This document shows, piece after piece, positions 18,888 through 45,036 of a stretch of DNA of 64,000 nt. Made by a program: the position numbers and the translations under genes. The notes beneath the pieces were generated by a model that saw nothing but the letters and a program-made list of their open reading frames with translations, had not been told where the DNA came from and ran no database searches. Source of the stretch: Candidatus Binataceae bacterium (GTDB taxonomy: Bacteria; Desulfobacterota; Binatia; Binatales; Binataceae); NCBI GenBank assembly GCA_050736695.1, contig JBOHWH010000135.1, positions 28,504 to 92,503 of the forward strand, in the 5' to 3' direction. Position 1 is the first letter of the stretch. Every line of letters begins with the position of its first letter.

Positions 18888-18891
18888 GGGT

Positions 18892-21501: not shown

Positions 21502-21972
21502 ATGGTTTGCCTCCTTGGCTGTCTGTTAGTGGATCGAACAGAAACCGATTCACCACGGGATTTGGAAAAGCGGCGGCAGGAGTATCAGTGAATTTCTTGA
21601 GTTCATCGTCGCGGCAGTTCCAAATCCCTAGACGACAGTAACACCCAGCGCGTACCTTGGGAGCCCGATTCCGGTCGCCTCTGTCCTCCGCGGGTTGGGT
21701 CGTAATTTTCGTTACCGAAAAGCGGACAGGCCAACGGTCAGCGCCCACAGCACGGCAGCGACGACAGAATTAAAGATTACAGACTGGCGAAGGACTCGCT
21801 GCTCGTCTGTGGCTGGCTTATACACCGCGAGGAAAGCGGGTGATTTCCCTGCAATCGAGGTTTCGAGATCCGAATCCTCTGATCCTTGGAGCCAGTAGGA
21901 AAATTCGAGTGCCTTGCTCGCGGCGACTCCAACGCCTCGCGAAGCATGGTGCGCTCCGCAAGACGCTCCATC

Positions 21973-22530: not shown

Positions 22531-22626
22531 ACGATTCTCCTTGCGCAAATGAGTCCGCTCCGTCACCGGTCGAGCCGAGTAAACCATCGCAGCAAATGAC
22601 GCAGATCGAGCGTGGCCACTCGCCGC

Positions 22627-26133: not shown

Positions 26134-26355
26134 TTTGGAGAAAAACCGAGACTGGAATCAAAGTGACAAATTGCAAGTGCCAGGGGGGATTTCGTCACCC
26201 GCATCTCGGCCTTGCCTGCTGTCGCTTTTCGCAGGCCAGGGCAGCGCTCCAGCCGTCCGACAGCATATGAGCCAATGTGGAAATTAGGCGCCACTAGAAC
26301 GCTCAGCGTCGGATAGCGCCCGACACGCAGCCCTGCCGTGTCACGCTAGCCTGAG

Positions 26356-27435
26356 CTAGGGCCGCTCGTTGCGGGACCGGCCCAGGGTACCTTTGCGTTT
26401 TTGAGAACGGAGAATGGCGCGACGGCGACTGCTGGCAGATATGTCCCTATTTTCGACGGCTTGCTCGCGCTTCCGCATCCGGACGTAGCTATCGAGCGAA
26501 AGTGCGCGGCCGATCGCCACTTTAAATAGCTCGTTCAAGACCTCATCAATTTTCGGCTGCGAAAGCGCCCGATATCCGTCTTTGAGTAGAACCCCGGGCC
26601 ACAGGAAAACCCACATGTTGCGCCGGAACGTCTGGCCAAGACTGTCCCGCGGACGTCCCTGTGGTCTGTTCGAGGCCAAATGCTGCAATTTATCCTGCAG
26701 AGTGTCGAGCGCGACTGAGACATGATCGGGAAGCCAGGTTGGCTCTCGCAGTTCCCGCCTGAGATTCAGTAGCAGCGAGAGCGCGCGTCCTGCGCCAGCG
26801 CCTTTCAGCCCTTTACGCGCCTCGGCGCAGCGGAAGTTCCAGCAAGCCTCTTCGAGGTTCTCCAGTCGCTTCGTCTGGTATCTACGCAGGGGGCTGAGCA
26901 ATTGATAAGCCTGCGTGCGCTGGAACTGCGCGCGGAAGGCAGCCTTTGCCTCCGCCCGCTCTTCTTGCATGGATGGGAGGTCGCAAAATGTCTCCAAAGC
27001 CCGACCTCTCTGCAAACTGGAATCGTCCGAAGATTTCATCGCAATGATAATGGTAGCACGTCCCCATGCGTTTCCCTGACATCTGGGCAGACACTTTTTC
27101 CACAAATCAATAGGGTCCAGGAGATTTGGAGTAGTGGTTTGCCCAGGGTATTTTGTACCAGCTGTCAAATTGAAGCTGGAACTGGAGGAACCCCGCAGTG
27201 GCAAGGCGACAGTACACGGCGGAAGAGATCGTATTAGCGGTTCGCATATGTCGGCATCTGAATCGCAGCGCGCCTGCCGGAGCAGATCGGGGTTAGATTC
27301 CGTTGGATTAGAGAATGACAAATGCTGTCCGATTGAAACGAACAACTCATAAATTGACTTGGTCGCTGCTGGCAGTCTGGCTGGCATGGGAAGGTTACTT
27401 GCTTGTCGCGGGCTTGTGGCCCTTTTTGGGGCCAC
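26356..27435 (-). CDS. Hypothetical protein (start uncertain)
   Basis: Long ORF. The C-terminal two-thirds has protein-like composition; the upstream third lies in a low-GC stretch and may be non-coding. Confidence 0.3.
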   Translation of the reverse strand: MAPKRATSPRQASNLPMPARLPAATKSIYELFVSIGQHLSFSNPTESNPDLLRQARCDSDADICEPLIRSLPPCTVALPLRGSSSSSFNLTAGTKYPGQTTTPNLLDPIDLWKKCLPRCQGNAWGRATIIIAMKSSDDSSLQRGRALETFCDLPSMQEERAEAKAAFRAQFQRTQAYQLLSPLRRYQTKRLENLEEACWNFRCAEARKGLKGAGAGRALSLLLNLRRELREPTWLPDHVSVALDTLQDKLQHLASNRPQGRPRDSLGQTFRRNMWVFLWPGVLLKDGYRALSQPKIDEVLNELFKVAIGRALSLDSYVRMRKREQAVENRDISASSRRRAILRSQKRKGTLGRSRNERP

Positions 27436-27795
27436 AAACGGATACTTTTAACGGTGTGGTTTACCACGGCCGCGCGGATCGGATGGAAACTGGATTAATC
27501 GCAACGGTCTCTGGGTTTCCGTCGGGCCTCTTTATCCCTGCCTTAGAGTTGATCCTGTTGCAAAAAAGCCTGGTATAGGACTTGTTGGTAGGCAAGACAC
27601 TTGATCGAGTTTATCTTCAGCTGGTTGATTATTTGTGCTGTGACTTCGCGCAATGGTACGTTACGCTGCGCGGGCTGGACTTCTTGATCAGAAGGCTGAG
27701 GATACGACTGAGACAGAAATCCGTTACCCCGACGTGAGAGCCCGCAGGGAACGTTCGGCGTCGAGATGCGGAACTCCTCCGTCGGCGGGAAGGCA

Positions 27796-30651
27796 ATGAA
27801 ATCATCGAGGGTTCGTTCAACCAATCGCGTGCGCGTGTTGTTGGGGGTAGCGGTTCTCCTGGCAGCGATCGCGGGCTACCGGCAGGTTGTAGGGGCGCAA
27901 TCACAACCCCGCGCTTTGATCACCGAGCCGGTCAGCGATACCAAGCTGGTCACGCTCGCGGGTAATACGCGTCCGGAGGCGAACTCACGCTACGATCGCG
28001 GGCCGGTCACTGACAGCTTCCGGATGGAGCATATGTTCCTCCAGTTGCGACGCTCTCCCGGAGCGGAGCACGCCCTTCAGCAGTACATGGGACAACAGGC
28101 CGACCCCAAGTCACCAAACTATCACCATTGGTTGACGGCGCAGGAAATCGGTCAGCGGTACGGTCTGGCCCCGGAAGATATGGTCACGATCACCGGGTGG
28201 CTCCAGTCCCACGGCTTCACTGTCAATGTCGTTTATCCCAACGGCATGGTGATCGACTTCTCGGGTACGGCAGGCGAGGTGCGCAAGGCTTTCCACACCG
28301 AGATTCATCGCCTTGATGTGGACGGCAAGCTACATATCGCCAACATGAGCGATCCGCAGATTCCGGCCGCGCTCGTGCCGGCAGTGGTCGGCATCGTGTC
28401 GCTGAACGACTTCCGGCCGCATCCGATGCGCACGAAAAGCTCGAACTTCTCGCGGGGCGGTACTTGCGGCCCATTGGGCGCTCCGTGTGAGAAGCTCGTA
28501 CCTGCCGACGTCGATACCATCTACAACTTGAATCCGCTCTTTTCCGGCAGTATCACCGGGCAAGGCGAGAGAGTCGTAGTGGTCGAAGATAGCGATGTCT
28601 TCAATCCTGGCAACGCGATTTGTATGGGGAATGGCACTCCCACCGGCTGTTGTTCGGGTTTCGGAACAGGATCCTGCGGCACCGGAGACTGGGACACCTT
28701 CCGCACTACTTTCGGCCTTGCCAGCGACTTCCCGAACGGACGTTTCGTGCAGTTCCAACCGCCACCGCCCAGCGGCTCGAACAATTGTAGCGATCCGGGC
28801 GCCGTCACAGACGTTGATGTCGAGGCGATCCTCGATGCGGAATGGGCCTGCGCGTCGGCGCCCAACGCGACTATCCTTATGGGCTCGTGCGCGGACGTCA
28901 CTACCGGATCTTTTGGGACGACATTGGCTTCGGGAGTTTTTGTCGCACTGCAGAACATTCTAAACGGCGCGCTGAGCCCGAAGCCGGATGTGGTGAGCGT
29001 CAGTTACGGCGAATCGGAGGCAGTTAACGGCGCGTCGTCCAACGCCGCCATCGACTCGCTGTATCAGACGGGCGTGGCGGGAGGCATTTCAATTTTCGTT
29101 GCTGCGGGCGATGCCGGTTCGGATTCTAATGACGAGGATCGAGGGCCGCCTCCATCCGCGGCAACCTTCGGAATCAGCGTGAGCGGATTTGCGTCCAGCC
29201 CGAACGACGTGGCGGTGGGTGGCACCGATTTCGGTGACTTCTTAACCAACACCAGCTCCACATACTGGAATGCGTCGAATGGGGCCAACGATGGCTCGGC
29301 CCAGTCCTATGTGCCGGAAATCCCGTGGAACGACTCGTGCGCCAGCGACCTGTTGTCCGGATTCATGGGCACGGTCTCAACCTTTGGCCCAAGTGGCTTG
29401 TGCGAACTTGCTTTGTTCGGAAGCGGGATTTGCACGAGTAACCGCGAGCCATACGGGTGTTGTGATGGGCCGGGGAGCGGCATTTGTCCACAACCCGATT
29501 TTTCGCTGCAAGTCGCCGGCGGCAGCGGCGGCCCAAGCAGCTGTGCGAGCGGAGCGCCGTCCACGAGCGGCGTGGTAAGCGGGACCTGTAAAGGATGGAC
29601 CAAGCCTGGTTATCAATCGGTTTTTGGCAACCCGAGCGACGGCGTTCGCGATGTTCCCGACGTCGCGCTGTTCGCCGCAGACGGATTGTGGGGGCATTGC
29701 TACGTGTTTTGCAATTCCAACCCTGCGGACATGAATTCATGCACTGGCGACGTCAGCACCTGGCCTTGCGCGGGCGGGACCTCGTTCGCCTCGCCGATAA
29801 TGGCCGGCATCCAAGCTCTGGCCGATCAGAAGACCGGCAGCGATCAAGGCAACCCGAATACCACCTACTATTCGCTCGCGCGCACCGAGTATGGCGCGAG
29901 TGGCAACGCCAGCTGCAAGTCGAGCCTGGGTAACGGAGTTTCAAGTTCGTGCATCTTCTATGACATAACCCAGGGTGACAACGACCAACCATGCGTTGTA
30001 GGCGACCCGAACTGTTTCGCCGACGGAGTACCTACCGGGGATGTCGGCGTGCTGTCCACGTCAAACTCGTCGTTCCAGAACGCATTTGGGGCGAACGCCG
30101 GATGGGACTTCGATACCGGCATCGGGACCGTCAATGCCACCAATCTCGTGATGGCATTTGCCGGCAGCGTGACGGTAACGGTAACGGCAACCGCGACTGC
30201 AACGTCAACCAGCGGCACGCCGACAACAACCGCAACGTCAACTACGCCTAGCACCGCGACTCCGTCGGCAACAATGACTGCTACCGCTACCGCGACGAAG
30301 ACCGCAACGCCGACGGCTACTGCGACGCCGGGCGGCGGGCGAGTCTCGGTGAACCGGAAGAAGCTCGTGCTCAACGCGTCGCCGATGGCGACGGCGTCCT
30401 CAAGTATCACTATTGGCAACAGGGGGACGGGCCCGCTGACGGCTAACGTAAGCGCCCCGGAACACGACCCCCCATTTACGGAGGTTGGTGGAGCAAGGGG
30501 GATTGTGATCGGTCCGGGCTTAAACCACGAAGTGATAATCGTGTACGCGCCGACGAAGAAAGGATCGAGGAGCGATCAGATCTTGATCACGAGCGATGAT
30601 CCCACGCATAAGAAAGTAATCAAGGTGAAAATCAAGGGTAGGGCGAAATAG
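27796..30651 (+). CDS. Secreted sedolisin-like serine peptidase (S53: pro-kumamolisin activation domain + peptidase) with a Cys-rich insert, a Thr/Ala/Pro-rich linker and a C-terminal beta-sandwich domain
   Basis: GGGAAGG RBS before the ATG at 27796. Signal peptide, then an S53 pro-domain (...QYMGQQADPKSPNYHHWLT...). The catalytic serine motif is GGTSFASPIMAG. The linker (TVTVTATATATSTSGTPTTT...) is followed by a roughly 100-aa terminal domain. Confidence 0.8.
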   Translation: MKSSRVRSTNRVRVLLGVAVLLAAIAGYRQVVGAQSQPRALITEPVSDTKLVTLAGNTRPEANSRYDRGPVTDSFRMEHMFLQLRRSPGAEHALQQYMGQQADPKSPNYHHWLTAQEIGQRYGLAPEDMVTITGWLQSHGFTVNVVYPNGMVIDFSGTAGEVRKAFHTEIHRLDVDGKLHIANMSDPQIPAALVPAVVGIVSLNDFRPHPMRTKSSNFSRGGTCGPLGAPCEKLVPADVDTIYNLNPLFSGSITGQGERVVVVEDSDVFNPGNAICMGNGTPTGCCSGFGTGSCGTGDWDTFRTTFGLASDFPNGRFVQFQPPPPSGSNNCSDPGAVTDVDVEAILDAEWACASAPNATILMGSCADVTTGSFGTTLASGVFVALQNILNGALSPKPDVVSVSYGESEAVNGASSNAAIDSLYQTGVAGGISIFVAAGDAGSDSNDEDRGPPPSAATFGISVSGFASSPNDVAVGGTDFGDFLTNTSSTYWNASNGANDGSAQSYVPEIPWNDSCASDLLSGFMGTVSTFGPSGLCELALFGSGICTSNREPYGCCDGPGSGICPQPDFSLQVAGGSGGPSSCASGAPSTSGVVSGTCKGWTKPGYQSVFGNPSDGVRDVPDVALFAADGLWGHCYVFCNSNPADMNSCTGDVSTWPCAGGTSFASPIMAGIQALADQKTGSDQGNPNTTYYSLARTEYGASGNASCKSSLGNGVSSSCIFYDITQGDNDQPCVVGDPNCFADGVPTGDVGVLSTSNSSFQNAFGANAGWDFDTGIGTVNATNLVMAFAGSVTVTVTATATATSTSGTPTTTATSTTPSTATPSATMTATATATKTATPTATATPGGGRVSVNRKKLVLNASPMATASSSITIGNRGTGPLTANVSAPEHDPPFTEVGGARGIVIGPGLNHEVIIVYAPTKKGSRSDQILITSDDPTHKKVIKVKIKGRAK

Positions 30652-30771
30652 GCGGACGGGCCGGTTTGAATACGCGCGCAACGAAAGGACGCACGGTGCG
30701 AGCCGATGAGCCCGAAAATGCACCTAAGCCGATCATCGCCATCGATGGCGATGATCGCCGCTCGATCCGGT

Positions 30772-32361
30772 CTATTTGTTCTTCGGCGCTTTCCCCGTTC
30801 CCGACAGCTTCACCGACTGCTGCTCAGCATTGTCGATGATCATCAGGGTGGCCGTAGACGATACGGCGGCGGTCGGCGCGAACGTAATTCCGATCGCGCA
30901 CTCCGAGCCTGGGTATAGCTCCGCCGGAAAACTGCACCTATTATCCACGCCGAACGGACTGCCCCCTCCGCTGAGTCCTTCGATCAGCACAGTGATACCG
31001 GGCTTCTTCTTGCTCCCCTTGGGATTGCGCATGATGACACGCTTGGGCCCCTTAAGACTCCCTACCTCCACGCTGCCGAAATTCAGCGATGTCGGTCTGA
31101 TCCTGAGCTCAACCGGTACCGGTGTTGGCGTCGGTGTTGGCGTCGGTGGAATTCCAGGGCCTATTGCGTAAAGGCGATTTGGCCCATACGGATAGACGTT
31201 CATGTAGATCGTTCCGTCGGCGCCGATCGCCGGCGCTCCTTCTATAAGGGAAATACCGCCGGCCGCGGTGGCGAACTTCCACTTAATGGAGCCGTCGGGG
31301 TTGATCGCGTAGATATTCCCGTCATTGGCGCCAACATAGATAGCGCCATCGGCTCCAATCGCCGGCGACGAGATTACCGCCGCGTCCTCAGTAAAAACTT
31401 GCCACCTGAAACTGCCGTTGGGGTTTAACCCCCACACGCTGCGTCCGTCTCCAAAATAGATTGCGCCATCGGCCCCAATAGCTGGCGAGGATAGTACCCA
31501 GTAATTCGGTGACTGGAACCGCCACTTTAACGAACCGTCGGGATTGATGGCGAACAGGTAGGCGATACTATTCGGGTAACCCCCAGTAAATTCGGAACCG
31601 ACATAGATAGTACCATCCGCCCCTACTGCCGGAGAAGACTCCACGTCGCCAGGCGTCGTGAAGAACCACTTCAACGAGCCGTCGGGGTTTACTGCATAGA
31701 CGTTGTAGTCAGCGGAACCAAAGTAGATTGTTCCGTCGGTAGCGATCGCCGGAGAGGACATCTCATTGGTCCCATAATTTCCTTCCGCCAGCACCCACTT
31801 CGCGGTGCCGTCGGGGTTGATCGCATACAGTTTGCCGTCATCGCAGTACACGTAGATGGTTCCATCGGCTCCGATTGCGGGCGAGGATTCTAATTCAAAG
31901 CCGGTTTGGAAAATCCACTTCAATGTACCATCCGGATTTACTGCGTATAGGTAACCGGTTCGGATATCGCCGGCTGAAGGAGCGTAGATCGTTCCATCGG
32001 CTCCGATTGCGGGCGAAGGGTACAGTGGCCAGGCGGCTGCGAACGTCCACTTCACCGTCCCGTCCTGATTAAATGCGTAGAGATTATTGTCTCCAGGCGT
32101 TGAATAGATGGTTCCATCCACGCCAAGGGTGGGCGACGATAGCGGCGCAAAAATAGTGCCCCCTGGGTAAACAAACAACCATTTCTGGACGCCGTTGTTG
32201 GCGCTGGTGTCGAATGAGCTTTGGCCAGTGTGTGCAGAGTCGTGCCGGAAGACCGGCCAAGGCGAAGCCGCCAGTTGTGCACGCGGCGCGCTCGTCAACG
32301 AGACTATGAGCAAAACGCCAGCGGCCAAACTCAATAAAACGATCGGACCAATTCGGCCCAC
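30772..32361 (-). CDS. Secreted PQQ-type beta-propeller repeat protein with TPTPTP linker and C-terminal beta-sandwich domain
   Basis: About nine repeats of ...SSPAIGADGTIY...NPDGS.KW.F... form a PQQ-like/BamB-like propeller. A signal peptide is present. The linker is PTPTPTPTPVP, and the C-terminal domain resembles that of the adjacent S53 protease. Confidence 0.75.
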   Translation of the reverse strand: MGRIGPIVLLSLAAGVLLIVSLTSAPRAQLAASPWPVFRHDSAHTGQSSFDTSANNGVQKWLFVYPGGTIFAPLSSPTLGVDGTIYSTPGDNNLYAFNQDGTVKWTFAAAWPLYPSPAIGADGTIYAPSAGDIRTGYLYAVNPDGTLKWIFQTGFELESSPAIGADGTIYVYCDDGKLYAINPDGTAKWVLAEGNYGTNEMSSPAIATDGTIYFGSADYNVYAVNPDGSLKWFFTTPGDVESSPAVGADGTIYVGSEFTGGYPNSIAYLFAINPDGSLKWRFQSPNYWVLSSPAIGADGAIYFGDGRSVWGLNPNGSFRWQVFTEDAAVISSPAIGADGAIYVGANDGNIYAINPDGSIKWKFATAAGGISLIEGAPAIGADGTIYMNVYPYGPNRLYAIGPGIPPTPTPTPTPVPVELRIRPTSLNFGSVEVGSLKGPKRVIMRNPKGSKKKPGITVLIEGLSGGGSPFGVDNRCSFPAELYPGSECAIGITFAPTAAVSSTATLMIIDNAEQQSVKLSGTGKAPKNK

Positions 32362-32524
32362 GTCCTTGTAACGTTTCGTTGGATTTCCCCCCGCTTACTC
32401 GGTCCCCGCTCGCAGACGCTATTTTGGTACTCATGGAGAGACGGTGCAACCTTTTTCCCATCCAGGTAGTAGGGTCTGAGCATTACTAGAACGTCGTTTG
32501 GCTTGCCTATCCGGAAAGCGGCGC

Positions 32525-32586
32525 GTCAACCGCCAGGGCTGTCAACCGCCGCTTGTCAACCGCCCCATAGTGTCAACCGGTTGACA
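32525..32586 (+). promoter_or_regulatory. Iteron array: three direct GTCAACCGCC repeats (14-16 bp phasing) plus the palindrome TGTCAACCGGTTGACA, adjacent to the right island junction
   Basis: GTCAACCGCC occurs at 32525, 32541 and 32555. The perfect 16-bp palindrome lies at 32571-32586. The array is 20 bp upstream of the tRNA-3'-end-like repeat (32606). Confidence 0.4.
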
Positions 32587-32605
32587 GAGAGCACCTGCTA
32601 TCGGA

Positions 32606-32975
32606 CTGCGTCATCCACCATTCAGTCTCTTAGTATTCGCACATCTCGGAGAGCCGCGCGAAATCCGCGCTGGCCCGAGAAGGAGAACCACGTGAACGCG
32701 AATACTAAACCCGTCGCTGCTACGCCGCCGCCGGCGCTGCCTTCGAAAAACAGGAAGGACGCGCCTCGGCCATCGCGGTCATCGCGTGCAGGCGGCCCAA
32801 GCGGAGAATTTGGTTTGTCGATACTGCGGCAGCGAAGATCTCGCGCCGTCGTTCAAGAAGCGACGCCCGATGCCGCGCCTGCTTCAAGAACCGCTACGGT
32901 TCGGCTCCGCGCAAGAAGGCCACGCGCACTCGGAAGCCGAAGGCTGCGAAGTAGTTCGCGGCGCAACCAATGTCA
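32606..32975 (+). repeat. Right copy of the direct repeat (tRNA-Val 3'-end-like sequence plus pseudogenised copy of the small zinc-ribbon gene), marking the right border of the island
   Basis: ctgcgtcatccacca...acatctcggaga...gaaggagaaccacgtgaacgcgaatac... is collinear with 10178-10745, apart from a roughly 170-bp segment that it lacks and several indels. Confidence 0.7.
32690..32950 (+). pseudogene. Degraded paralog of the small zinc-ribbon protein gene (frame-disrupting 1-bp and 5-bp indels)
   Basis: Same N-terminus (MNANTKPVAATPPPALPSKNRKDAPRPSRSSRA), but the CxxC region appears only in a shifted frame (the 32786 ORF: ...LVCRYCGSEDLAPSFKKRR...). Confidence 0.55.
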
Positions 32976-33122
32976 TTGGGCGCGGGGGAACCCGTGACAC
33001 GCACGCGGGGTACACAGGTTCGTGGCGTGATAATGAAAATCCTTTGGCCCAACAATCAGGCGCGAACTTCGCATTTGCAAACTAAATGGTTTTGGTGCCA
33101 AGTCTCACCCAGGTGAAGTATA

Positions 33123-33701
33123 ATGCGAATCAAAGGAGTTGACCCGGAGCATGTCCCGGAGAGCGTAAAGTCAATCTTTCAACGAAGCCTCGACCTGTTC
33201 GGGCGTGTCATCACGCCCAGTACGGTGCTGGCGCATCGGCCGGAGATTCTGCTCGCCGCAGGACAATTGGGCAAGGCGGTTGGCGCCTCGACGGTGGTCG
33301 AGGGCCGTCTCAAGACGATGGTCTCGGTGCGCGCGGCGCAAATGGTCGGCTGTCCCTTTTGAGTAGACATCAACTCTGCCGTCGGCAGAAACGCCGGTAT
33401 TACCGATGAGCAACTCGGAGATTTAGCCACCTTCGAGACCAGTGCGCGTTTCGACCGCCGCGAAAAGGCAGCGTTGCGCTATGCCGAAGGGATGACGCGC
33501 ACGCCCGCTGATGTCTCCGAGGCGGTGTTCGAAGAGGTGAGATCGTTCTTCAACACGGAGCAAATGGTGGAATTGACAGCGGCGATCGCGCTCGAGAATT
33601 TCAGGGCGCGGCTCAACTGCGCGTTCAAGGTCGAGAGCGACGGCTTGTGCCTGCTGCCGGCTGATCATCCAGTGCGCAAGGCGTTGGCCAAACGTCCGTG
33701 A
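33123..33701 (+). CDS. AhpD-like (carboxymuconolactone decarboxylase family) protein with one in-frame TGA at the CxxC position; candidate selenoprotein (CPF-U), otherwise a nonsense pseudogene
   Basis: ORFs 33123-33362 and 33474-33701 are in the same frame, and the only intervening stop is TGA at 33360-33362. The TGA falls where CMD proteins carry the second Cys of Gly-Cys-x-x-Cys (here GCPF-TGA-VD). A 5-bp-stem hairpin (CTGCC-GTC-GGCAG, 33376-33388) puts G and U in the loop at +22/+23 from the UGA, close to the G23/U24 geometry of the E. coli fdhF SECIS. No Sec-machinery genes are in the window. Confidence 0.5.
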
Positions 33702-34110
33702 ATCCGGATGCCGCGGAGGATTCGATAGCCCCGGTCTGAACGGCGGACTGAACCCGGCGCCCACGTCCTGAGGCCAAAGAACAACGGCCCCGGCCGGCGG
33801 CTGCCGGTGATGAGACGCGCGATCTCTGAAAGAAAGCGGTATTGCTTGCCGCGAAAGAGCGCGCCGTGTTCGAGCACCGTCACCTGATGCTGGACTCCGC
33901 CCCGCTCGCGCAGCAGGATGGCGTCGGCTTAGAGTTTGCGCACGGAGACGACTCTAATCGGCCTGCACTCACCCACATTGTTGGCGACCTGTTCGAGCAG
34001 GCGGTGCGTGGCGGAGCCAGTCCGCCGGGCGTGCGTTCCTTCATGCGGTAGACGACCGCGCGGCTCCGGCGTTGACAACCACGATCGCGGGCGTCTCCGT
34101 AAGTTGCTTT
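33665..34110 (-). pseudogene. DUF2924-family gene remnant (frameshifted), with its partner recombinase deleted
   Basis: The 33665-33883 ORF matches the intact DUF2924 C-terminus ([37 protein letters not shown] vs TVLEHGALFRGKQYRFLSEIARLITGSRRPGPLFFGL). The 33880-34161 ORF, in another frame, matches the mid-region (YRLQERALGGVRPSTQRILDRVCNG vs YRMKERTPGGLAPPRTACSNRS). No recombinase follows. Confidence 0.5.
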
Positions 34111-34157
34111 TCGCGCGGATTGGGTTTGAGAAACCACAGCCCGCATGCGCCCGGATT

Positions 34158-35435
34158 TCAATCAGTTCCGCAAGCGCCCGGCTTGCTTTCCAAGGTGGGA
34201 TCTCGCACCAAAATTCCGTCGGCGTAGAGCTTGCGGATTTCGCCTTCGTTCATCTTCAGCAGCTCACGGAGAACGCGCTCGTTGTCCTCGCCGAGCCTTG
34301 CGGCGCGGACCTCGGTCCGATCCGGCCACGCGGAAAACTTCACCGGGACCGCCGGAATTGCGACCTTGCCAAGCAGCGGATCCTGGACCCATCGAACTGT
34401 CTTGCGCTCATTGTGATGTGGATGCTTGACGGCCTCGTTGACCGTCAGCACCGGCGCGCACGGCACCCGCTCGGCATCGAGCGCGGCGATCGCGTCGTCG
34501 CGGGTTGGAAATTTAGAGAGCCAGTCCTCGATGACGTCCCTGAGCTGCTCCTTGTTGTCGCGCCTGGCGCGGGCGCTATTGAAGCGCGGATCGTCCGCCA
34601 ATGCGGGCATCCCGAGCGCACGGATGACCTGCGGCCACTGATGAGGCGTCGAGGTGATCAGCACGTACTGCTCGCCGCGATAATGATAGATGCCGGTCGC
34701 TCCGCCGTCGGGATGCAGCGAGCCGCTGCGGGTCGGCCGATACTTGTCGCCGCGTAACGACACCATCGGCACCGTCTTCTCGTGCATATGGAAGTAGGTG
34801 TCCAACAGCGAGGCGTCCAGGTACTGGCCTTCGCCGGTGCGCTCGCGATGGAGCAGCGCAAATCCAATCGCCATCGCGGCGTTGACGCCGGTCGATACGT
34901 CGCCAATCGCCATGCTGGTCAGCGCCGGCGGTCCGCCAACCTGGCCGATGCCGTCGGTGACGCCCGCGTACGCCTGGCCGATGAAGTCGTAGCCGGCCTT
35001 GTTCGAGAGCGGTCCGCTCTGTCCCGCCATCGAGATCGAGCACATGATGATTTTCGGATTCACCGCCTTCACGTCGGGGTAGGAAAACCCGAGCCGATCG
35101 ATCACGTGCGGCGCGAAATTTTCGACCACCACATCGATCTGCGGAATCATCGCCATGACGATTTCGCGCGCGCGCGGCTTTTTAAGATCGATCGCGAAAC
35201 TCAGCTTCGAGTGATTGTGCTGAAGATAGTAGGTGCTGTGGCTGGAGTTCTTGTATTCCGGCGCGAGCGATTTCAGCCCATCGGCGCGCACCCGATCGCC
35301 CGCGGGCGCGAGCTCGAGCTTGATCACCTCGGCGCCCATCTCGCCAAGAATTCGCGTGCAAGTCGGTCCTGCCACGAACTGCGTGAAATCCAGTACCCGG
35401 TAACCTTCGAGCATTCGTGGCGGATCGTTTGTCAT
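34158..35435 (-). CDS. CoA-transferase family III protein (CaiB/BaiF; formyl-CoA transferase / acyl-CoA racemase-like)
   Basis: The N-terminus GYRVLDFTQFVAGPTCTRILGEMGAEVIKLE is the family III CoA-transferase signature. 425 aa. Confidence 0.85.
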   Translation of the reverse strand: MTNDPPRMLEGYRVLDFTQFVAGPTCTRILGEMGAEVIKLELAPAGDRVRADGLKSLAPEYKNSSHSTYYLQHNHSKLSFAIDLKKPRAREIVMAMIPQIDVVVENFAPHVIDRLGFSYPDVKAVNPKIIMCSISMAGQSGPLSNKAGYDFIGQAYAGVTDGIGQVGGPPALTSMAIGDVSTGVNAAMAIGFALLHRERTGEGQYLDASLLDTYFHMHEKTVPMVSLRGDKYRPTRSGSLHPDGGATGIYHYRGEQYVLITSTPHQWPQVIRALGMPALADDPRFNSARARRDNKEQLRDVIEDWLSKFPTRDDAIAALDAERVPCAPVLTVNEAVKHPHHNERKTVRWVQDPLLGKVAIPAVPVKFSAWPDRTEVRAARLGEDNERVLRELLKMNEGEIRKLYADGILVRDPTLESKPGACGTD

Positions 35436-35496
35436 TTGCTCATATTTCCCAATTGACGATTCTCAATTTCGCGGTTCTTTCAACAACCACACCGCC

Positions 35497-36255
35497 TCAC
35501 GGAACGACCACCGATCCGCCGCTGATGCTGATTACTTCACCCGTGATGTATGATGACATATCGCTGGCAAGGAACAACGCGAGGTTGGCAACCTCGCGCG
35601 GCTCGCCGAGCCGGCCCATCGGATTGCGTTTCTTCGCGCCTTCGAACATTCCCTTCGGATATATCCTCTCCAGGAATTCGTTGTAGATGACGCTCGGCGC
35701 GATTGCGTTGACGCGAATCCCCTTTCGCGCGAGCTCGCCGGAAGCGGCGCGCGTCAGACCCATCACTCCCGCCTTGGCCGCTGAGTACGCAGCCTCGCCA
35801 CCGCTTGAGGCAATCCATCCCGCTGCCGACGCCATGTTTACGATTGCGCCTTTGCCTTGCTTGATCATATGTGGCAGGACCGCGCGCATCGCCCAGAACG
35901 TTCCTCTCAGGCACACGTTCATCACCAGGTCCCAGGTTTCGTCCTTGAGTTCCCAGATCGGCTCGAGCTTGTTGATCCCGGCGTTGTTGAAAAGCACATC
36001 GATGCGGCCGAACTTATCAATCGCCTTCGCGACCGCATCTTCGACCTGTTTTCGGACGGTAACATCCACCGCCACGCCGAGTACCTCCCTTCTGAATTGC
36101 TTGCTCAGTTCGTCGGCGAGTTCGCCGGTGCGGCGCGGATGCGCGTCGGTAATCACCACGTTGGCGCCTTCCTCCAGGAAGCGAGTCGCGACTGCGTGGC
36201 CAATGCCAGCTCCAGCGCCGGCGGTTATCAACGCAACTTTGTCCTGAAGCAGCAT
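35497..36255 (-). CDS. SDR-family short-chain dehydrogenase/reductase
   Basis: GGAGGA RBS before the ATG at 36255. Cofactor motif TAGAGAGIG, NNAG, and the catalytic S...YSAAK triad. Confidence 0.85.
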   Translation of the reverse strand: MLLQDKVALITAGAGAGIGHAVATRFLEEGANVVITDAHPRRTGELADELSKQFRREVLGVAVDVTVRKQVEDAVAKAIDKFGRIDVLFNNAGINKLEPIWELKDETWDLVMNVCLRGTFWAMRAVLPHMIKQGKGAIVNMASAAGWIASSGGEAAYSAAKAGVMGLTRAASGELARKGIRVNAIAPSVIYNEFLERIYPKGMFEGAKKRNPMGRLGEPREVANLALFLASDMSSYITGEVISISGGSVVVP

Positions 36256-36307
36256 GTCATCCTCCGATCTTGAGTGAAGTCCGCAGACTCGCCTCATTCG
36301 TCGCCGT

Positions 36308-36958
36308 CTATCGCTCGAACGTGCCGATCAGTTCCCGCAGCCGTAGCTTCGCATCATTGAGCATACACTCGCCGTCGCCAAGCAGCATCGTGTCAAAATC
36401 GAGTGCCGCCAGTCCGCGTACGCTCTCGCGCAGCTTCGGCGGATCGTCCACTACCGTTTCGCGCAACAGGCTGAGCCGCCCCGGCGGATTTCCGACCACC
36501 GCATCGCCGACTATCAGAATCTTCCGTGCGGGCCAGTGCAACGCCACCTCGCCCGGCGATTTTCCCGGCACTCCTACCACGACCAGCGGTCCGATCTTCT
36601 CGTTCACCCTCAACTCATCGTCAAGTTCGGCGCCCTGGCCGCGCGCGTAATCGGCATCGTCGCGATGAATCGCGATTCGTGCTCCGGTGCTCGCCCGTAT
36701 CCGATTCGCCGCCCGCACATGGTTGCGGTTAGTGAGCAGGATTCGGCTGACGCCCGCGCGCGTCAGCTCGCGAAGATCCTCCGCGCCCGGCTCGACCGGA
36801 TCGACGACGAGGTTGCCGGAGCGATCCGCAATCAGAAAGCTGTTGAAGTTGTAGCCGTGCGGCTCTGAAAACCATGACCACGTCAGAATATCGCCCGCGA
36901 TTGTTTTCAACGTGCTCGCCTCGCGGGGGTGGCGTATTGATTCGATGCCACCCGCCAA
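36308..36958 (-). CDS. MBL-fold metallo-hydrolase-like protein
   Basis: 216 aa with a beta-lactamase-fold-like pattern (NSFLIADRSGNLVVDP...ILLTNRNHVRA...IVGDAV). Motif conservation is incomplete. Confidence 0.45.
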   Translation of the reverse strand: MAGGIESIRHPREASTLKTIAGDILTWSWFSEPHGYNFNSFLIADRSGNLVVDPVEPGAEDLRELTRAGVSRILLTNRNHVRAANRIRASTGARIAIHRDDADYARGQGAELDDELRVNEKIGPLVVVGVPGKSPGEVALHWPARKILIVGDAVVGNPPGRLSLLRETVVDDPPKLRESVRGLAALDFDTMLLGDGECMLNDAKLRLRELIGTFER

Positions 36959-37266
36959 GATATCCGCGCGTCCGGAAATATCCGCAGGAAATTTTCCGAA
37001 CAGAATCGATCGCGTACCTTTTCCGATCGATCTCCCGGCGCCGTCTCGAACCGCGCAATCGGGTTTCGTCCCCTTTCGATGTGCGCGTAATCACCCGAAA
37101 ACAGATACAGCTCCGGATTTGACTCGTCAATTCTCAATGCCTGGATCTCTTTCGACGTCTTGATCAATCGCTCGCCCAACGCCAGCAAATCCGTGACGTG
37201 CTCCTCGCTATGCTGCCCGCCGCGCGTCACGATCTCCGCGACTTCCTCGGTGACTAGGCGACGCAT
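36907..37266 (-). CDS. Hypothetical protein (overlaps the upstream end of the MBL-fold ORF in another frame)
   Basis: 119-aa ORF. It could be a separate small gene, or could point to a frameshift or start-site problem in the neighbouring gene. Confidence 0.2.
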   Translation of the reverse strand: MRRLVTEEVAEIVTRGGQHSEEHVTDLLALGERLIKTSKEIQALRIDESNPELYLFSGDYAHIERGRNPIARFETAPGDRSEKVRDRFCSENFLRIFPDARISWRVASNQYATPARRAR

Positions 37267-37424
37267 ACTTCTGAAGAAAATCCGGGAGCTCCGTGATTAT
37301 GGCGGTCGGTGCCGCAAAACGGCCGATGATCGGGTGCGTACGACATGGTTGGTTCCTCTACGCCGGTTAGTTCATCAAGGCTTGAGGATCGATTTAACCA
37401 TTAAAGTCTGACGACTCTCAAGGA

Positions 37425-38108
37425 ATGGCTCCGAAACGAACTCGCGATTCGATTTGCACCGTTGCGGCACTCGTTCGATTATCGAATATCGTGACGCCTT
37501 TTCTCATCGATGGACCCCCGACGGCGGCGCGCTCGATCGCACTCGCGCATGGCGCCGGGGCGCCGATGGATACGCCGTTCATGCAGACGATCGCTCGAGG
37601 TCTCGGCGCGGCGGGTATTCGCGTGATCCGGTTCGAATTCCCATACATGCGGCGGCGCCGCGAGACTGGCGCGCGCCGCGCGCCGGATCCCGGACGCTTG
37701 TTGATTGCGTCCTGGCGTGACACGATTAACGAACTCGGCAATGCGAACCGGCTCGTCATCGGCGGTAAATCGCTCGGCGGCAGGATCGCAAGCATGGTCG
37801 CCGACGAAGCCGGAGCAGCCGGCGTCGTATGCCTCGGCTATCCGTTCCATCCACCCGGCCGGCCAGCGCAGACGCGCATCAAGCATCTCGAGGTGATGCG
37901 CACCGCGGCGCTAATTCTCCAAGGCACGCGAGATAGCTTCGGCCACCCCGATGAAGTGCGCGACTATCAGCTGTCACACGCCATTCGGATCGAGTGGCTC
38001 GAAGACGGAGATCATTCGTTCAAACCGCGCATCCGCAGCGGCCGCACCGAGGCCGACAATCTGCGCAAGGCTATCGCGCTCATCGCCGACTTTATGGCCG
38101 CGCTTTGA
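37425..38108 (+). CDS. Alpha/beta hydrolase (KANL3/Tex30-like, dienelactone hydrolase fold)
   Basis: HGAGAPMD, the nucleophile elbow GGKSLGGR, and a conserved C-terminal His region. Confidence 0.7.
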   Translation: MAPKRTRDSICTVAALVRLSNIVTPFLIDGPPTAARSIALAHGAGAPMDTPFMQTIARGLGAAGIRVIRFEFPYMRRRRETGARRAPDPGRLLIASWRDTINELGNANRLVIGGKSLGGRIASMVADEAGAAGVVCLGYPFHPPGRPAQTRIKHLEVMRTAALILQGTRDSFGHPDEVRDYQLSHAIRIEWLEDGDHSFKPRIRSGRTEADNLRKAIALIADFMAAL

Positions 38109-38159
38109 TTTCCGGGAAAGCCAGTCGGTTGCGCTCTCGAGGTCGGCCAAAGCCTGTCT

Positions 38160-38202
38160 GTGGCGAATTGCCGATTTCTATAGAAAATCAGCAATTCGCC
38201 AC
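38160..38202. repeat. 43-nt near-perfect palindrome (12-bp perfect arms GTGGCGAATTGC / GCAATTCGCCAC around a partly palindromic 19-nt centre)
   Basis: gtggcgaattgccgatttctatagaaaatcagcaattcgccac, located between the two hydrolase genes. No T-tract follows. Confidence 0.5.
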
Positions 38203-38372
38203 ACGCAGGTTCTCTCTTGAGGTACTTGATACTCATAACTGCCGGTCTCTACTTATGATCTGACGGGAAGCAGGCCATCATCTATCATCTTCTTCACAAC
38301 GCCTGAGATCGAAATCGCGTTAGAACAGCGGATATGTCAGGCTGCATCGGGAATAAAGTGGAGATGCCGATG

Positions 38373-39152
38373 AAATCGATGCAGCGAATCTGGCTCGTCT
38401 CGGTCGCCTCCGCGCTTTTGGTCTGCGCTGGACCGCGACAAGCCGCAGCCTGGACCATGAGCCAGTTCGTGTCCAATGGCGAGCCGGTGGAACAGTACGC
38501 CTGCGCGCCCGACTCCAAGCAACCGAGCCCAGCGGTGATCCTGCTGCATGGCGCCGAGGTCCATGGCGCGAGTTATCACAACCTGGAAAGAATCTGCACT
38601 GATCTCGCAGCGCAGGGCTACTACGCGGAAATGATCGAATACTACAGCCAGGGCGAAGAAGTCGTTCCTGGCGAGTTTGGGCAAATCCGCAAATCGTTTC
38701 GCCGGTGGGTATGGAAAATTCACGATGGTTTGGACGCACTCGGTAAAAACCCCGCAGTCGATCCCAAGCGGATTGGTGTGATGGGATATTCGTTGGGCGG
38801 ACTGATGGCGCTAGCTATCGGCGCGCGCCATTCGGACCAGATTGCAGCGGTCGTTGACTACTACGGCGGTCTGCCGCCGTCAGTGAAGGAACAGGCGGCC
38901 ACGATGCCGCCTACATTGATCATCCACGGCGGCAAGGATCGCATCGTGCTCGCTCAGTTATCGCGTGAGCTCGATAAGATTCTCACCGACGCCGGGCGGC
39001 CGCACCAGTTGAAGCTCTATCCCGATGCGGATCACGCTTTCAACTTCGACGACTCGAAAACGTACGACACCAGCGATACGCAAGCCGCATGGACCGCGAC
39101 GCTCGACTTTCTGGCGCAATATCTGAAGGGCAATCCTCCGGCATCTCAATAA
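38373..39152 (+). CDS. Secreted dienelactone hydrolase family protein
   Basis: Signal peptide (MKSMQRIWLVSVASALLVCAG), nucleophile elbow GYSLGG, and the C-terminal HGGKDRIV...DADHAF. Confidence 0.8.
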   Translation, partial: KSMQRIWLVSVASALLVCAGPRQAAAWTMSQFVSNGEPVEQYACAPDSKQPSPAVILLHGAEVHGASYHNLERICTDLAAQGYYAEMIEYYSQGEEVVPGEFGQIRKSFRRWVWKIHDGLDALGKNPAVDPKRIGVMGYSLGGLMALAIGARHSDQIAAVVDYYGGLPPSVKEQAATMPPTLIIHGGKDRIVLAQLSRELDKILTDAGRPHQLKLYPDADHAFNFDDSKTYDTSDTQAAWTATLDFLAQYLKGNPPASQ

Positions 39153-39320
39153 CCGAAGCCGCCGCGTGCCGATTGGCTACCACCCTCGCCGCGGGAGCGT
39201 CAGGTTGACTCTATGAGGTTGTTCGGATTAGCTGACAAATCGCTGCGTACGCGGTACGAGTTTCTAAAGTTTTTTAAGCTCCCCGTACCTAATCCGAAAT
39301 GTCCGCCTGCGAGAGTGCGG

Positions 39321-39890
39321 ATGGCCGATGATAACGCAAAGGGCGGCCGCGGGATTTCCGGCGGCCTGATTGGTGGCGCAACCGCGCTAGCCACCGCGAT
39401 CGCCGCTATCGTCGGGATGCTCAATCAACTCGGCTACATCGGAAATCACGGGACATCCAAGCCGGCCGCAGTCGTCGCATCCGCGCCGCTCAATTCCGAA
39501 CCCGCGAGTGCGCCCGGATCTTCTATCTCGGATGAGGCGCGCTCCGCAGCCGGAGCGGCGCCGTCGTCAGCGCTCGCCATGACAGAGCCCGGGAAATTAT
39601 CGAGCCTCACCGGGGCATGGCGCGACGCCGGCATGGGCGCGTGCCATCTCATTACTCAGCATGGCTCCGATCTCGAAATAACCAACTACTTTCCCGATTC
39701 CAACGAGGTGATGAGCCACGGGGACGGGACGGTTACTGGAAGCCAGGTCGAATTTCGGCTTAGGACGATGCATGGTCACTTTCGAATCTCACCCGATGGC
39801 AAGGTCTTGCAAGGGACGATGCTCCGCGCAACGGGCACACGTCGTTCGATGTGGCAGTACATCGGAACCTCCTGCCGGAAACCGGGCTGA
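39321..39890 (+). CDS. Hypothetical secreted/membrane protein
   Basis: Internal ATG followed by a Gly-rich hydrophobic segment. No recognisable domain. Confidence 0.35.
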   Translation: MADDNAKGGRGISGGLIGGATALATAIAAIVGMLNQLGYIGNHGTSKPAAVVASAPLNSEPASAPGSSISDEARSAAGAAPSSALAMTEPGKLSSLTGAWRDAGMGACHLITQHGSDLEITNYFPDSNEVMSHGDGTVTGSQVEFRLRTMHGHFRISPDGKVLQGTMLRATGTRRSMWQYIGTSCRKPG

Positions 39891-39901
39891 ATCAGCCGGC
39901 C

Positions 39902-41616
39902 TCAAGCCGAACCTGCCGCGGTCGAGGCGGGTAGTTCCTTGATTGGGCGGATCTCCCAGCGGCCTCCGCTGCTCAGTTCGAGGTTGCGATCGTGGTATTG
40001 CGCCAGGCTGGTGCGATGGCCGACGCTTACCACCACTATCGGACTATCGACGAGCCGTCGGTAGAGCATCGTTTCGTTGGCCGGGTCGAGTGCGCTGGTC
40101 GCCTCGTCCAGAAAGGCGAAGCGCGGCAGATTGAGTATCAGGCGCCCGAACGCGAGACGTTGCTGCTCGCCCTGCGACAGGACGTCGGCCCAATTGCGCT
40201 CGGCGTCGAGACCGCCGACGCGCGCGGGCAGATCCGCAAGATTCACCTCGGCGAGGATGCGATTCAGATCGTCGTCGGAGGCTCCCGCCGCGCGCGGGTA
40301 GCATAGCTGCGCGCGCAACGAACCCAGAATCATGTAGGGCCGCTGCGGCAGGAACATCATGTCGGCGAGCGGCGGGCGCACGATTCGACCGCTGCCGGTG
40401 CGCCAGATGCCCGCGATCGCGCGGGTCAGCGAAGTTTTTCCGACACCGCTCGCACCCGTGATCAGCAGGCGTTCGCCCTCTTTGACATCGACCGACAGAT
40501 TCTCCACCAATTGGTTTTGTCCGTCCGGAGTTTTGAGCGAGACATCTTCGAGCGCGATGCACTGCTCTTCGGCGATCTCGATCCCGGGGCTGCCTTCGGC
40601 CAGGCGGGCGTTGTCGCACGCTTCGAGATAGGTTGCGAGCCGATTCACCACCGTGGCATACCTGGTCAATCCCTGGAAATCACTGATCACGAGGGCCAGG
40701 GTGCCCTTGACCGCGCCAAAGGCGGTCGCCGCCTGAAAGATTTGCCCCATCTGAATTTTATGCGAGAAATAGGCGCCCGCCAGCACGATCCACGGCACCA
40801 GGGCGACCGAGTTGTCGTAAGCGGTCTGCACGAAGCCCAGATATAGCTGCCATTGAAGCAGCAGCTTGAAATTCGAGACCACCCACCCGAAGCGTCGGCT
40901 AAGCTCGCCATGCTCCTGCGCTTCGCCGCCGTACATCGCGATCGATTCGGCATTGTCGCGCACGTGAACCAGGTCAAAGCGGAAGTCCGCCTCGTAGCGC
41001 TCCTGATTGAAATTAATCAGCACCAGGCGGCGGCCCACGATCACGGCAGCGTAGGTGCCGATAACCGAATAGGCGATCAGCGAGATTGCCAGCCAGTGCG
41101 AGATCGTCCACAGGATTCCGAAGAACGCGGCCGCCATCACGAGCGAACCCACCAAGCTGTTGATGTAGCTGAGCGTCGAGGTGGTGAAAGTATCGAGATC
41201 CTGCTGGATGCGTTGGTCGGGGTTATCGACGTTGCCGTCGAGGTTCATCTGGTAGAAGGCATGATTGCCGAACCCCGCGCCAACGAACCACTCGGTCATC
41301 CATTCGCGCCAAAGAATCTGGAGCCTGCCGATCAGGTAGGGCAGGAATGGGTAAACCACGATGACGAAAGAGATCCAGATGAAAAAAGCTTCAGCAGGAA
41401 ATAAAATCTCTTCTGATTGTACTTCTGGAGCGCATCGACCACGTCGCGGTTGATATAGCTGAAGACCGCCGAGAACCCGACGAACAGCAGGATCATCACG
41501 AGTACGACGGCCAGCAGGGTGCGGCCCTTGCGCTTCTGATCCGAAACCCAAAACGGCTTCGCCAGCCGCCATAGCCGCTGCCAGAAGACCCGGTCAAACC
41601 TATCCATTGAATTCAA
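39902..41616 (-). pseudogene. ABCD-type (SbmA/BacA-like, ABC_membrane_2) ABC transporter permease/ATPase, with a frameshift near codon 65
   Basis: The N-terminus (MNSMDRFDRVFWQRLWRLAKPFW...) is in the 41332-41616 frame. The rest (TM region, Walker A GASGVGKTS, signature LSQGEQQRLAFGR, Walker B FAFLDEATSALD) is in the 39902-41572 frame. The frames switch around 41400-41445, near A/T homopolymers. Confidence 0.65.
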
Positions 41617-41763
41617 GAATACACCTCGACAACTGCGACGGCGCTAAGTCGGCAGATATGATGTGCGTCAGAATCGCGCCTCGCCGCAAGCGAGTACTCG
41701 CAAACGGTCGATTTGGCGCGGCAATCGGCCGCCCGGCGCATCCAGCGGATATGCGAATACCGG

Positions 41764-42915: not shown

Positions 42916-43049
42916 GATTCACCTCATAAGCTCTTCGGCCTGCTCATCGCTAGCGCGAAGATCGGTTTCGATCCCGCGCCACGCTTGGCGTGGTATCCCT
43001 TCTCTCTAGTATAGATTCAAGAGAACATCACGGGACGAAGAGCGAATAA

Positions 43050-45035: not shown

Positions 45036-45036
45036 A

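Follow-up and report, generated by a model that had tools for sequence, protein, structure and literature searches.

A broken DUF2924 gene beside island E1

A short minus-strand sequence resembling a DUF2924 gene lies just outside a genomic island of Candidatus Binataceae bacterium, which raises the question of whether it is the remnant of an older integrative element that has lost its recombinase. The window analysed here is a stretch of 64,000 nucleotides (nt) of that genome (assembly GCA_050736695.1, contig JBOHWH010000135.1, positions 28,504 to 92,503), and positions are counted within it unless another locus is named. It contains a 22.4-kb element, E1 (about 10173-32605), with intact genes for a Zn-ribbon protein, a large serine recombinase (LSR) and a DUF2924 protein. 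A preliminary description of the window had interpreted two adjacent minus-strand open reading frames (ORFs) beyond the right end of E1 as a frameshifted DUF2924 remnant of an older, related element whose recombinase was deleted. The results described below make us highly confident of the core of this proposal, namely that the sequence is a dead DUF2924 gene from an integrative element that lost its serine recombinase.

When the intact 166-aa DUF2924 protein of E1 was compared with the whole window by tblastn, the best match apart from its own gene was 34012..33767, which corresponds to aa 77-157 with 46% identity and 73% positives (E 2e-20) and contains one in-frame stop. The claimed similarity was thereby borne out, at an identity above the 25% that the preliminary description had set as its limit. 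No second strong DUF2924-like region was found in the window besides the intact copy, the remaining tblastn matches having E values of at least 0.027. A family hidden Markov model (HMM) of 159 positions was built from 66 intact members and applied to the six frames of 33500-34400. It matched 33764-34015 in a single frame (positions 67-150; 104 bits, E 3e-34) and 34012-34110 in a second minus frame (positions 33-67; 9.6 bits, E 4e-5). The two matches adjoin each other on the HMM as well as on the DNA, which implied a single frameshift at about 34012-34015. The reconstructed peptide of the fragment scored 78.7 bits against PF11149 (E 6.8e-22, profile positions 36-135 of 135), above the gathering cut-off of 31.2 bits, and this alignment begins within the upstream part; the intact copy scored 143.6 bits (profile 2-135 of 135). 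The match in two frames proposed previously was therefore partly right: the second frame is real, but the bulk of the match is confined to a single frame, in which it crosses a TAA. The 'YRMKERTPGGLAPP' piece, found within a 93-aa ORF, is the weaker, frameshifted continuation of the fragment. Part of DUF2924 has been equated with the RAMA DNA-binding domain (PMC11342252), and a PDB sequence search with DUF2924 returned no relative.

The in-frame TAA is located at 33929-33931 and interrupts the main part of the fragment, and the N-terminus, amounting to the first ~32 HMM positions, is missing; together with the frameshift, these lesions leave no intact reading frame across the whole domain. Among the 33 columns that are conserved at ≥90% in the family, 27 are retained and six are changed (Q67K, G105D, W112R, S135F, W148R and S149P, in the numbering of the E1 copy); the invariant Gln67, Gly105 and Ser135 are among these, as are the two near-invariant tryptophans. 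Homology ends ~48 nt short of the stop codon of the CoA-transferase gene (34158) on the 5′ side, and at 33764-33767 on the 3′ side. The region 33764-34110 is a dead DUF2924 gene, being 5′-truncated, frameshifted, interrupted by an in-frame stop and changed at six near-invariant residues, and it presumably has no present activity.

The main match spans a 72-aa ORF (33665-33883) and a 49-aa ORF (33929-34078). The 72-aa ORF (P0043) has a GTG start, is labelled 'DUF2924 domain-containing protein' by NCBI in the source metagenome-assembled genome (MAG) and keeps the motif LSxxARxITG...GPxFFGL, so that one might regard it as a still-expressed, domesticated mini-protein carrying the C-terminal DNA-binding part of DUF2924. 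We consider this highly unlikely in view of the replacement of both near-invariant Trp residues and of the invariant Ser135 and Gly105. In addition, the tail of the ORF consists of 65 nt of unrelated sequence followed by the AhpD-like gene on the opposite strand, and an exact-sequence look-up of P0043 gave no record and no second genome with the ORF. The remnant had been described as running into the AhpD-like gene; this holds for the tail of the ORF, which reaches that convergent gene (stop at 33701), but DUF2924 homology ends ~65 nt earlier. The ORF bears a protein name at NCBI, and a pseudogene flag is due.

Table 1. Features of the window that bear on the DUF2924 fragment.
Feature	Position	Strand	Evidence or remark
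DUF2924 pseudogene, whole	33764-34110	-	family PF11149
DUF2924 pseudogene, main part	33764..34015	-	HMM 67-150 of 159 = aa 77-157 of intact copy
DUF2924 pseudogene, upstream part, other frame	34012..34110	-	HMM 33-67
tRNA-Val(CAC), integration hot spot	10110-10187	+	ARAGORN
Repeat copy A, start inside tRNA-Val 3′ end	10173-10744	+	
Intact 88-aa Zn-ribbon gene of E1, CRYC...CRAC	10445-10711	+	ORF
Intact LSR of E1, 560 aa	10826-12508	-	Pfam, PHROG 95
Intact DUF2924 of E1, 166 aa, reference copy	12501-13001	-	PF11149
E1 cargo, ~19.5 kb, lower GC	~13000-32500		
E1 right end, iteron block	32521-32605	+	motif cluster
Repeat copy B	32606-32987	+	repeat search, blastn
AhpD-like / YciW-related gene in recombinase slot	33123-33701	+	Pfam CMD, NF053654
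CoA-transferase family III gene, right limit of the relic	34158-35435	-	Pfam E 2.7e-100

The recombinase gene expected after the fragment is absent

In the intact module the recombinase gene had been said to come directly after the DUF2924 gene. This was seen in E1, in which the ATG of the LSR gene at 12508 overlaps the DUF2924 stop, and equally in viral sequences, where 80/80 IMG/VR contigs have a same-strand LSR whose N-terminus begins at most 400 nt downstream of DUF2924. The same order was found in the loci of the P0001 group (L082-L086), in L346/L347 and in the metagenome modules described below, and the intact DUF2924 genes nearest to the fragment (P0001 and P0005 groups) are likewise followed by an LSR. 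The LSR of E1 matches Pfam Resolvase (E 1.4e-40) and Recombinase (E 7e-16), and the pair as a whole matches PHROG 11806 and PHROG 95, the latter being an integrase family. The pairing has also been noted in Wolbachia, in phage WO regions (PMC10299305), and the DUF2924-LSR pair is a common prophage integration module. Since an LSR follows DUF2924 in the intact relatives, a solitary DUF2924 3′ end implies that a recombinase was lost.

No LSR trace was detected between 32950 and 33767 by tblastn with the LSR of E1 and that of the fragment's closest relative. The LSR gene is thus absent after the fragment, though present in every intact relative examined. The slot in which a 1.7-kb recombinase gene would be expected holds 810 bp with an AhpD-like gene, convergent with the fragment. 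The statement that the recombinase was deleted is accordingly right in that no LSR remains, but a simple deletion does not describe the locus, where an 810-bp segment with an intact AhpD-like gene, likely a selenoprotein gene (see below), now stands. The pseudogene status of the fragment, the LSR pairing and the lack of an LSR trace together support its previous interpretation as the relic of an older, related element minus its recombinase.

An apparent LSR match at aa 5-33 of an over-extended ORF was rejected, as it reflects an out-of-frame overlap with DUF2924 and not LSR sequence. The start codon of the LSR overlaps the DUF2924 stop at 12501-12508 (ATGGCTGA) in E1, and the two genes overlap by 14 nt in L082; such an overlap would fit translational coupling of the pair.

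Repeat B and its junction with E1

The left end of E1 (repeat A) recurs beyond its right end as repeat B. This second repeat copy, previously placed at 32606-32975, was confirmed and extends to 32987. Its segment 32606-32670 is 80% identical to 10173-10237 (65 nt), and 32667-32987 is 89% identical to 10420-10744 (blastn, 327 nt), which makes repeat B the closest known relative of the left end of E1. It comprises a 15-mer similar to the 3′ end of tRNA-Val (32606-32620), left-arm sequence and a Zn-ribbon pseudogene on the plus strand (32692-32954), in which GTG replaces ATG, one nt has been gained at 32790 and five have been lost at 32859/32860; the pseudogene gave two tblastn high-scoring segment pairs in different frames. 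A 186-nt deletion at ~32670 took the conserved motif upstream of this gene. The Zn-ribbon protein had no significant Pfam or NCBIfam family, its Zn-ribbon matches being sub-threshold, and an Rfam search of 32300-34300 found nothing relevant. Repeat B, the slot and the fragment follow one another in the same order and orientation as the corresponding parts of the intact modules of E1, L088, L090, L113, L125, L135 and L152.

The last 85 nt of E1 (32521-32605) contain GTCAACCG(CC) five times, four times in direct and once in inverted orientation, followed by GAGAGC..ATCGGA. The iteron block, this spacer and the 15-mer CTGCGTCATCCACCA form a contiguous unit before Zn-ribbon genes in four unrelated metagenome contigs as well (iterons at L122:63-122, L112:9562-9624, L121:9552-9606 and L092:2171-2227), and the iterons are candidate binding sites of an attP arm. 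Twelve of the 15 positions of the 15-mer at 32606-32620 match the true 3′ end of tRNA-Val, and the deviation is identical in the window, L112, L121 and L092, with a variant in L122. The view that the 15-mer is merely a decayed, displaced tRNA end is weakened by the occurrence of the same variant in other loci, and the 15-mer probably also belongs to the site arm of the element itself. Judged by its sequence, the junction between E1 and repeat B (32521-32620) looks like an attP-type site, with the right arm of one element beside the left arm of another, which is what a tandem insertion would yield. In the window, tRNA-Val, E1, the tRNA-like 15-mer and then repeat B with the fragment stand in the order expected of tandem accretion. 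The iteron cluster at the right end of E1 also includes the palindrome GTCAACCGGTTGAC.

The same features could be read in another way, in which E1 entered by Campbell-type homologous recombination within a ~90%-identical Zn-ribbon segment of a resident element, and not site-specifically at the tRNA gene. The junction and the start of repeat B would then be the uninterrupted attP of E1 itself, repeats A and B would be reciprocal chimeras, and the fragment would still be a remnant of the resident. The occurrence of the P arm and the 15-mer as a contiguous unit in five independent loci is in line with this, as is the shared departure of the 15-mer in the window, L112, L121 and L092, which is not random decay; to our knowledge, moreover, no recombination of attP with attL-type sites is known for LSRs (phiC31/Bxb1-type integrases). 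We nevertheless regard this route as improbable. Identical runs between A and B measure ~20-25 nt, barely enough for RecA-dependent exchange, and identity along the repeat (80%, then about 90%) shows no evident chimeric switch. The attP-like junction does not discriminate, as tandem site-specific insertion gives the same one.

Given that the source is a MAG and that an independent Logan assembly breaks inside repeat B, the contig might have been mis-joined at the A/B repeat, in which case the fragment would not truly lie beside the island. Two Logan contigs from SRR27067722 argue against such an artefact, which we consider hardly credible. Both are 100% identical to the window (L186 to 30756-32702, L001 to 32676-45039), they share 27 nt of B-specific sequence, and the pseudogene lies wholly within L001. 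Because the two contigs reproduce both sides of the junction, a mis-join is unlikely; the same junction type also occurs in the four metagenome contigs mentioned above.

Organization of related modules in metagenomes

Relatives of the Zn-ribbon gene were found in at least 454 confirmed stretches of JGI metagenome contigs, of which 80 loci were examined. A recurrent layout, shared by dozens of contigs, emerged, consisting of an intact tRNA gene, ~260-540 nt, a Zn-ribbon gene (+), an LSR gene (-) and a DUF2924 gene (-), with L088, L090, L110, L113, L125, L135 and L152 as examples. The tRNAs were Ala-CGC (nine loci), Pro-GGG (two), Lys-CTT (one) and Ser-CGA (one); as the Zn-ribbon gene stands beside several different tRNAs, it is element-borne and not a chromosomal neighbour of tRNA-Val. 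The identities of the Zn-ribbon and DUF2924 proteins to those of E1 co-vary over the modules (e.g. 80/77, 73/72, 68/65). A Zn-ribbon gene or tRNA end was present in 0/80 of the viral loci found with the DUF2924 of E1, and a Zn-ribbon gene in three loci found with P0001.

Tandem arrays and decayed copies proved common among these modules, which supports the earlier suggestion of repeated or tandem acquisition followed by decay at the locus in the window. About 16 of the 80 loci have a second module directly upstream of the Zn-ribbon gene, and the tandem copies in L117-L120 clearly differ from each other (59% vs 80%, and 75% vs 68%, identity to the LSR of E1). Cargo-less units of ~3.3 kb, each with a Zn-ribbon gene, LSR, DUF2924 and a ~330-nt right end, are arranged in tandem in L105, L120 and L164, with partial tRNA 3′ halves (T-arm plus acceptor) between them, and L272 has two successive DUF2924-LSR pairs. 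Relics include L137, where a tRNA-Ala gene and a Zn-ribbon gene are accompanied by a 27-aa DUF2924 tail without a recombinase, L112 and L121 with truncated LSRs, and L136 and L157 with frameshifts.

It is possible, though we put it forward tentatively, that the fragment is a by-product of an undescribed, Binatota-wide family of LSR elements, some members of which are only ~3.3 kb long. As proposed, this family would target the 3′ ends of Val, Ala, Pro, Lys and Ser tRNA genes, carry a fixed Zn-ribbon/LSR/DUF2924-RAMA module in which a CAGAGCRATGTG-like cis motif precedes the Zn-ribbon gene and sometimes also DUF2924, include at least one subfamily with GTCAACCGCC right-arm iterons, and as a rule form tandem stacks whose recombinases are later lost. 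If this holds, serine integrases that target tRNA genes would have the Zn-ribbon and DUF2924 proteins as their accessory or directionality factors. We found no published description of a tRNA-targeting Zn-ribbon/LSR/DUF2924 module family.

The motif CAGAGC[AG][AC]T[GC] was observed ~63 nt upstream of the Zn-ribbon start (~10385-10405 in the window, and in many of L087-L166). It lies within 130 nt of that start in 31/51 loci, against a background of 0.011 per 130 nt, and also upstream of DUF2924 in 7/29 (~13020-13045 in the window), suggesting a possible operator or leader element common to both genes. In L127 (10001-12612), L162 (889-1767) and L115, the DUF2924-LSR pair points in the same direction as the Zn-ribbon gene, so that all three genes are co-directional; this may be a distinct architecture, or the pair may have been inverted.

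Origin of the relic

The best reading of these data, to which we assign a probability of roughly 0.55, is that repeat B and the fragment are what is left of a single older module, E2, which was pushed inward by the entry of E1 at the tRNA end and then decayed. E2 would have comprised a Zn-ribbon gene, a convergent LSR gene and DUF2924, located directly behind tRNA-Val(CAC). The newer E1, of the same family, with its intact Zn-ribbon, LSR and DUF2924 genes and its restriction, methylase, terminase-like and protease cargo, would have entered at the tRNA end and displaced E2 inward, bringing its right arm against the left arm of E2 and so creating the attP-like junction at 32521-32620. Once selection for mobility had become impossible, E2 would have decayed: its LSR gene would have been lost, the slot coming to hold the segment with the AhpD-like gene; the 5′ end of its DUF2924 gene would have been lost with everything beyond it as far as the CoA-transferase gene; and its Zn-ribbon gene would have lost the upstream motif and gained two frameshifts. 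The disparity between 89% nt identity in repeat B and 46% aa identity in DUF2924 could be explained by a mosaic E2, or by gene conversion between the direct repeats.

Several points weigh against a single module. With ~89% nt identity in repeat B and 46% aa identity in DUF2924, E2 would be a strong outlier from the co-varying modules. An intact foreign gene lies exactly in the recombinase slot, and a single module does not account for its arrival. To the right of 34161 there is no further tRNA-Val-like 15-mer and no iteron cluster, and thus no right end of E2. In the P0001 group (L082-L086), neither a Zn-ribbon gene nor a tRNA was present within 8.6 kb of context. Finally, an LSR element would have to integrate beside a resident one by recombining attP with an attL-type site, which LSRs are not known to do.

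Some of these points would be met if two separate relics lay side by side, repeat B being derived from an E1-like element and the fragment from an LSR element of the P0001-like clade that had inserted next to the AhpD-like gene, on its 3′ side, and whose recombinase and distal part subsequently disappeared. The AhpD-like gene would then never have been inserted and would simply lie between two wrecks, so that no gene insertion exactly into the recombinase slot would be required. The affinities of the fragment point in this direction, as it is 68-72% identical to the P0001-P0005 clade, 46-48% to the DUF2924 of E1 and 39-52% to the DUF2924 of Zn-ribbon-linked metagenome modules; on these identities, its lineage appears to differ from that of the E1 copy. 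The setting of the P0001-type loci and the status of repeat B as the nearest known relative of the E1 left end agree with two sources. On the other hand, it would be a matter of luck that repeat B and the fragment are ordered and oriented as in the module, more deletion events would be required, and linkage to a Zn-ribbon gene is not limited to the clade of E1, as shown by the viral loci L267 and L269, whose DUF2924 is 54-56% identical to the fragment. We therefore regard two relics as a somewhat unlikely origin, while noting that, on present similarity data, one mosaic element and two separate relics cannot be told apart. The core claim of a dead DUF2924 gene whose element lost its recombinase survives under all of the alternatives except the mini-protein and the mis-assembly.

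The tRNA-Val(CAC) locus in related genomes

The preliminary description had suggested a comparison with related genomes for an intact second element. None was found, and no empty site either, via CoA-transferase synteny (80 loci) or left-flank synteny (L178-L185). The left flank, from genes for a flavin adenine dinucleotide (FAD) protein, a carboxymuconolactone decarboxylase (CMD) family protein and a glutaredoxin onward, is syntenic together with tRNA-Val in L178-L185 (75-97% aa identity), and in L178-L184 the tRNA gene neighbours the FAD-protein gene. The DNA past tRNA-Val is different in every one of these relatives, and the right flank of the window is not common to them. The tRNA-Val(CAC) locus is a multi-family integration hot spot. 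CoA-transferase orthologs, 69-90% identical, occur in other gene contexts in 80 Binataceae genomes, and these 80 loci contained no window neighbours and no DUF2924, LSR, Zn-ribbon or AhpD matches.

Two of the relatives showed insertions of their own kind. A tyrosine-integrase island is located at tRNA-Val(CAC) in L178 (1708-9754), and ~5 kb is inserted between tRNA-Val and the FAD-protein gene in L182 (4721-9375). On the other side of the relic, the CoA-transferase orthologs lack nearby short-chain dehydrogenase/reductase, metallo-beta-lactamase, hydrolase, SbmA-like ABC transporter and GH5 cellulase genes, which are found at 34158-44800 in the window; in seven genomes, the CoA-transferase gene is located 2-4 kb from homologs of the window genes at 44791-48149. 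The stretch from 35 to 45 kb of the window may thus also be inserted or rearranged.

The AhpD-like gene in the recombinase slot

The gene in the slot matched Pfam CMD (E 1.4e-10), and its best NCBIfam model was NF053654, 'YciW-related (seleno)protein' (E 1.7e-40), with a score of 138.7 bits that is below the cut-off of 310. It appears to be split into ORFs of 79 aa and 75 aa, the break being a TGA at 33360-33362 which replaces the second Cys of a CPFC, CPF(C/U) motif (CxxU). Both this TGA and the downstream hairpin CTCTGCC-NNN-GGCAGAG are conserved in 11/11 related loci examined. A listing of 120 homologs contains 118 products of 105-114 aa whose start lies after the TGA, most database homologs being mis-annotated as such halves, and the gene is called as abutting 79-aa and 111-aa ORFs in Binatia genomes. 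The conservation of the in-frame TGA led us to reject decay of the gene, and suggested that the TGA is likely a selenocysteine codon and the gene a selenoprotein gene, which deserves annotation as such and not as two ORFs or a pseudogene. One selenocysteine tRNA was seen in a related genome (L032) and none in the window (ARAGORN). Homology to the relatives ends at the limits of the coding sequence (33123-33683).

In other genomes the AhpD-like gene follows a molybdopterin oxidoreductase gene. The latter consists of two abutting ORFs in some Binatia assemblies (L169:2419-4667, L171:3243-5493) and of one 749-aa ORF in others, a split that could be another selenocysteine codon or a product of assembly errors.

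Relation to known systems

As a further example of a type already known, the fragment amounts to ordinary genomic debris. In the tycheposons, which form tRNA islands in Prochlorococcus, newer elements push older ones inward and degenerate remnants are left, and 27/937 elements of this type use a large serine recombinase (bioRxiv 10.1101/2020.12.28.424599). The window resembles them in having a newer element beside the intact tRNA, an older one further inward, partial tRNA-like sequence at the junction and fragmented integration genes in the older copy. It differs in that the module consists of a Zn-ribbon gene, LSR and DUF2924, belongs to the phylum Binatota and is known from sequence alone, and in that the junction 15-mer looks like more than a displaced tRNA end, probably forming part of the site arm of the element itself. 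As in the (pro)phage DUF2924-LSR module, e.g. that of Wolbachia phage WO, DUF2924 stands immediately upstream of the LSR gene and overlaps it in E1, whereas the fragment is broken and without a recombinase; modules of the Binataceae type, for their part, are located at tRNA 3′ ends and include an additional, convergent Zn-ribbon gene.

In staphylococci, the composite staphylococcal cassette chromosome (SCC) islands at rlmH/orfX consist of LSR-driven elements in tandem at one 3′-end site, and pseudo-SCC elements that have lost their ccr genes persist as immobile cassettes. The locus studied here likewise has tandem LSR elements at one chromosomal 3′ end with persistence of an older, recombinase-less member, but its target is a tRNA gene instead of rlmH, and both accessory genes and phylum differ; the LSR of E1 matches CcrB/CcrA models only weakly (134 bits vs a family cut-off of 900). 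Cryptic or 'grounded' prophage remnants are similar in that an integration module has been disabled by deletion and point decay and is kept beside host genes, whereas the relic described here is ~1.5 kb long and has no phage structural genes.

The fragment alone matters little. Its value lies in marking the tRNA-Val(CAC) locus of a Binataceae genome as one struck more than once by serine-recombinase elements, and in having led to the recurrent tRNA/Zn-ribbon/LSR/DUF2924 module, which forms tandem arrays in metagenomes from soil and peat. The module family, with its tandem arrays, right-arm iterons and shared upstream motif, is more interesting than the fragment itself, and tRNA-end-targeting serine integrases with their accessory proteins could be of interest for genome engineering if characterised.

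Further observations on the cargo of E1

Among the cargo genes of E1 are those for a sedolisin-type protease, a beta-propeller protein and an N6/N4 methylase, together with a split HsdR gene and a weak terminase-like ORF. The type I restriction R-subunit is divided into two ORFs 2.7 kb apart, with HSDR_N/ResIII/Helicase_C in one (15304-17295) and EcoEI_R_C in the other (20046-20972). The two halves are separated by DNA of GC 0.53 with unannotated minus-strand ORFs, which suggests a secondary insertion in the cargo. The ORF weakly similar to a terminase large subunit (22627-24270) is located beside the N6/N4 DNA methylase gene (24778-26133), and a related DUF2924 gene stands directly after a terminase gene on the metagenome contig of P0010. 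These terminase neighbours hint at a phage or satellite ancestry.

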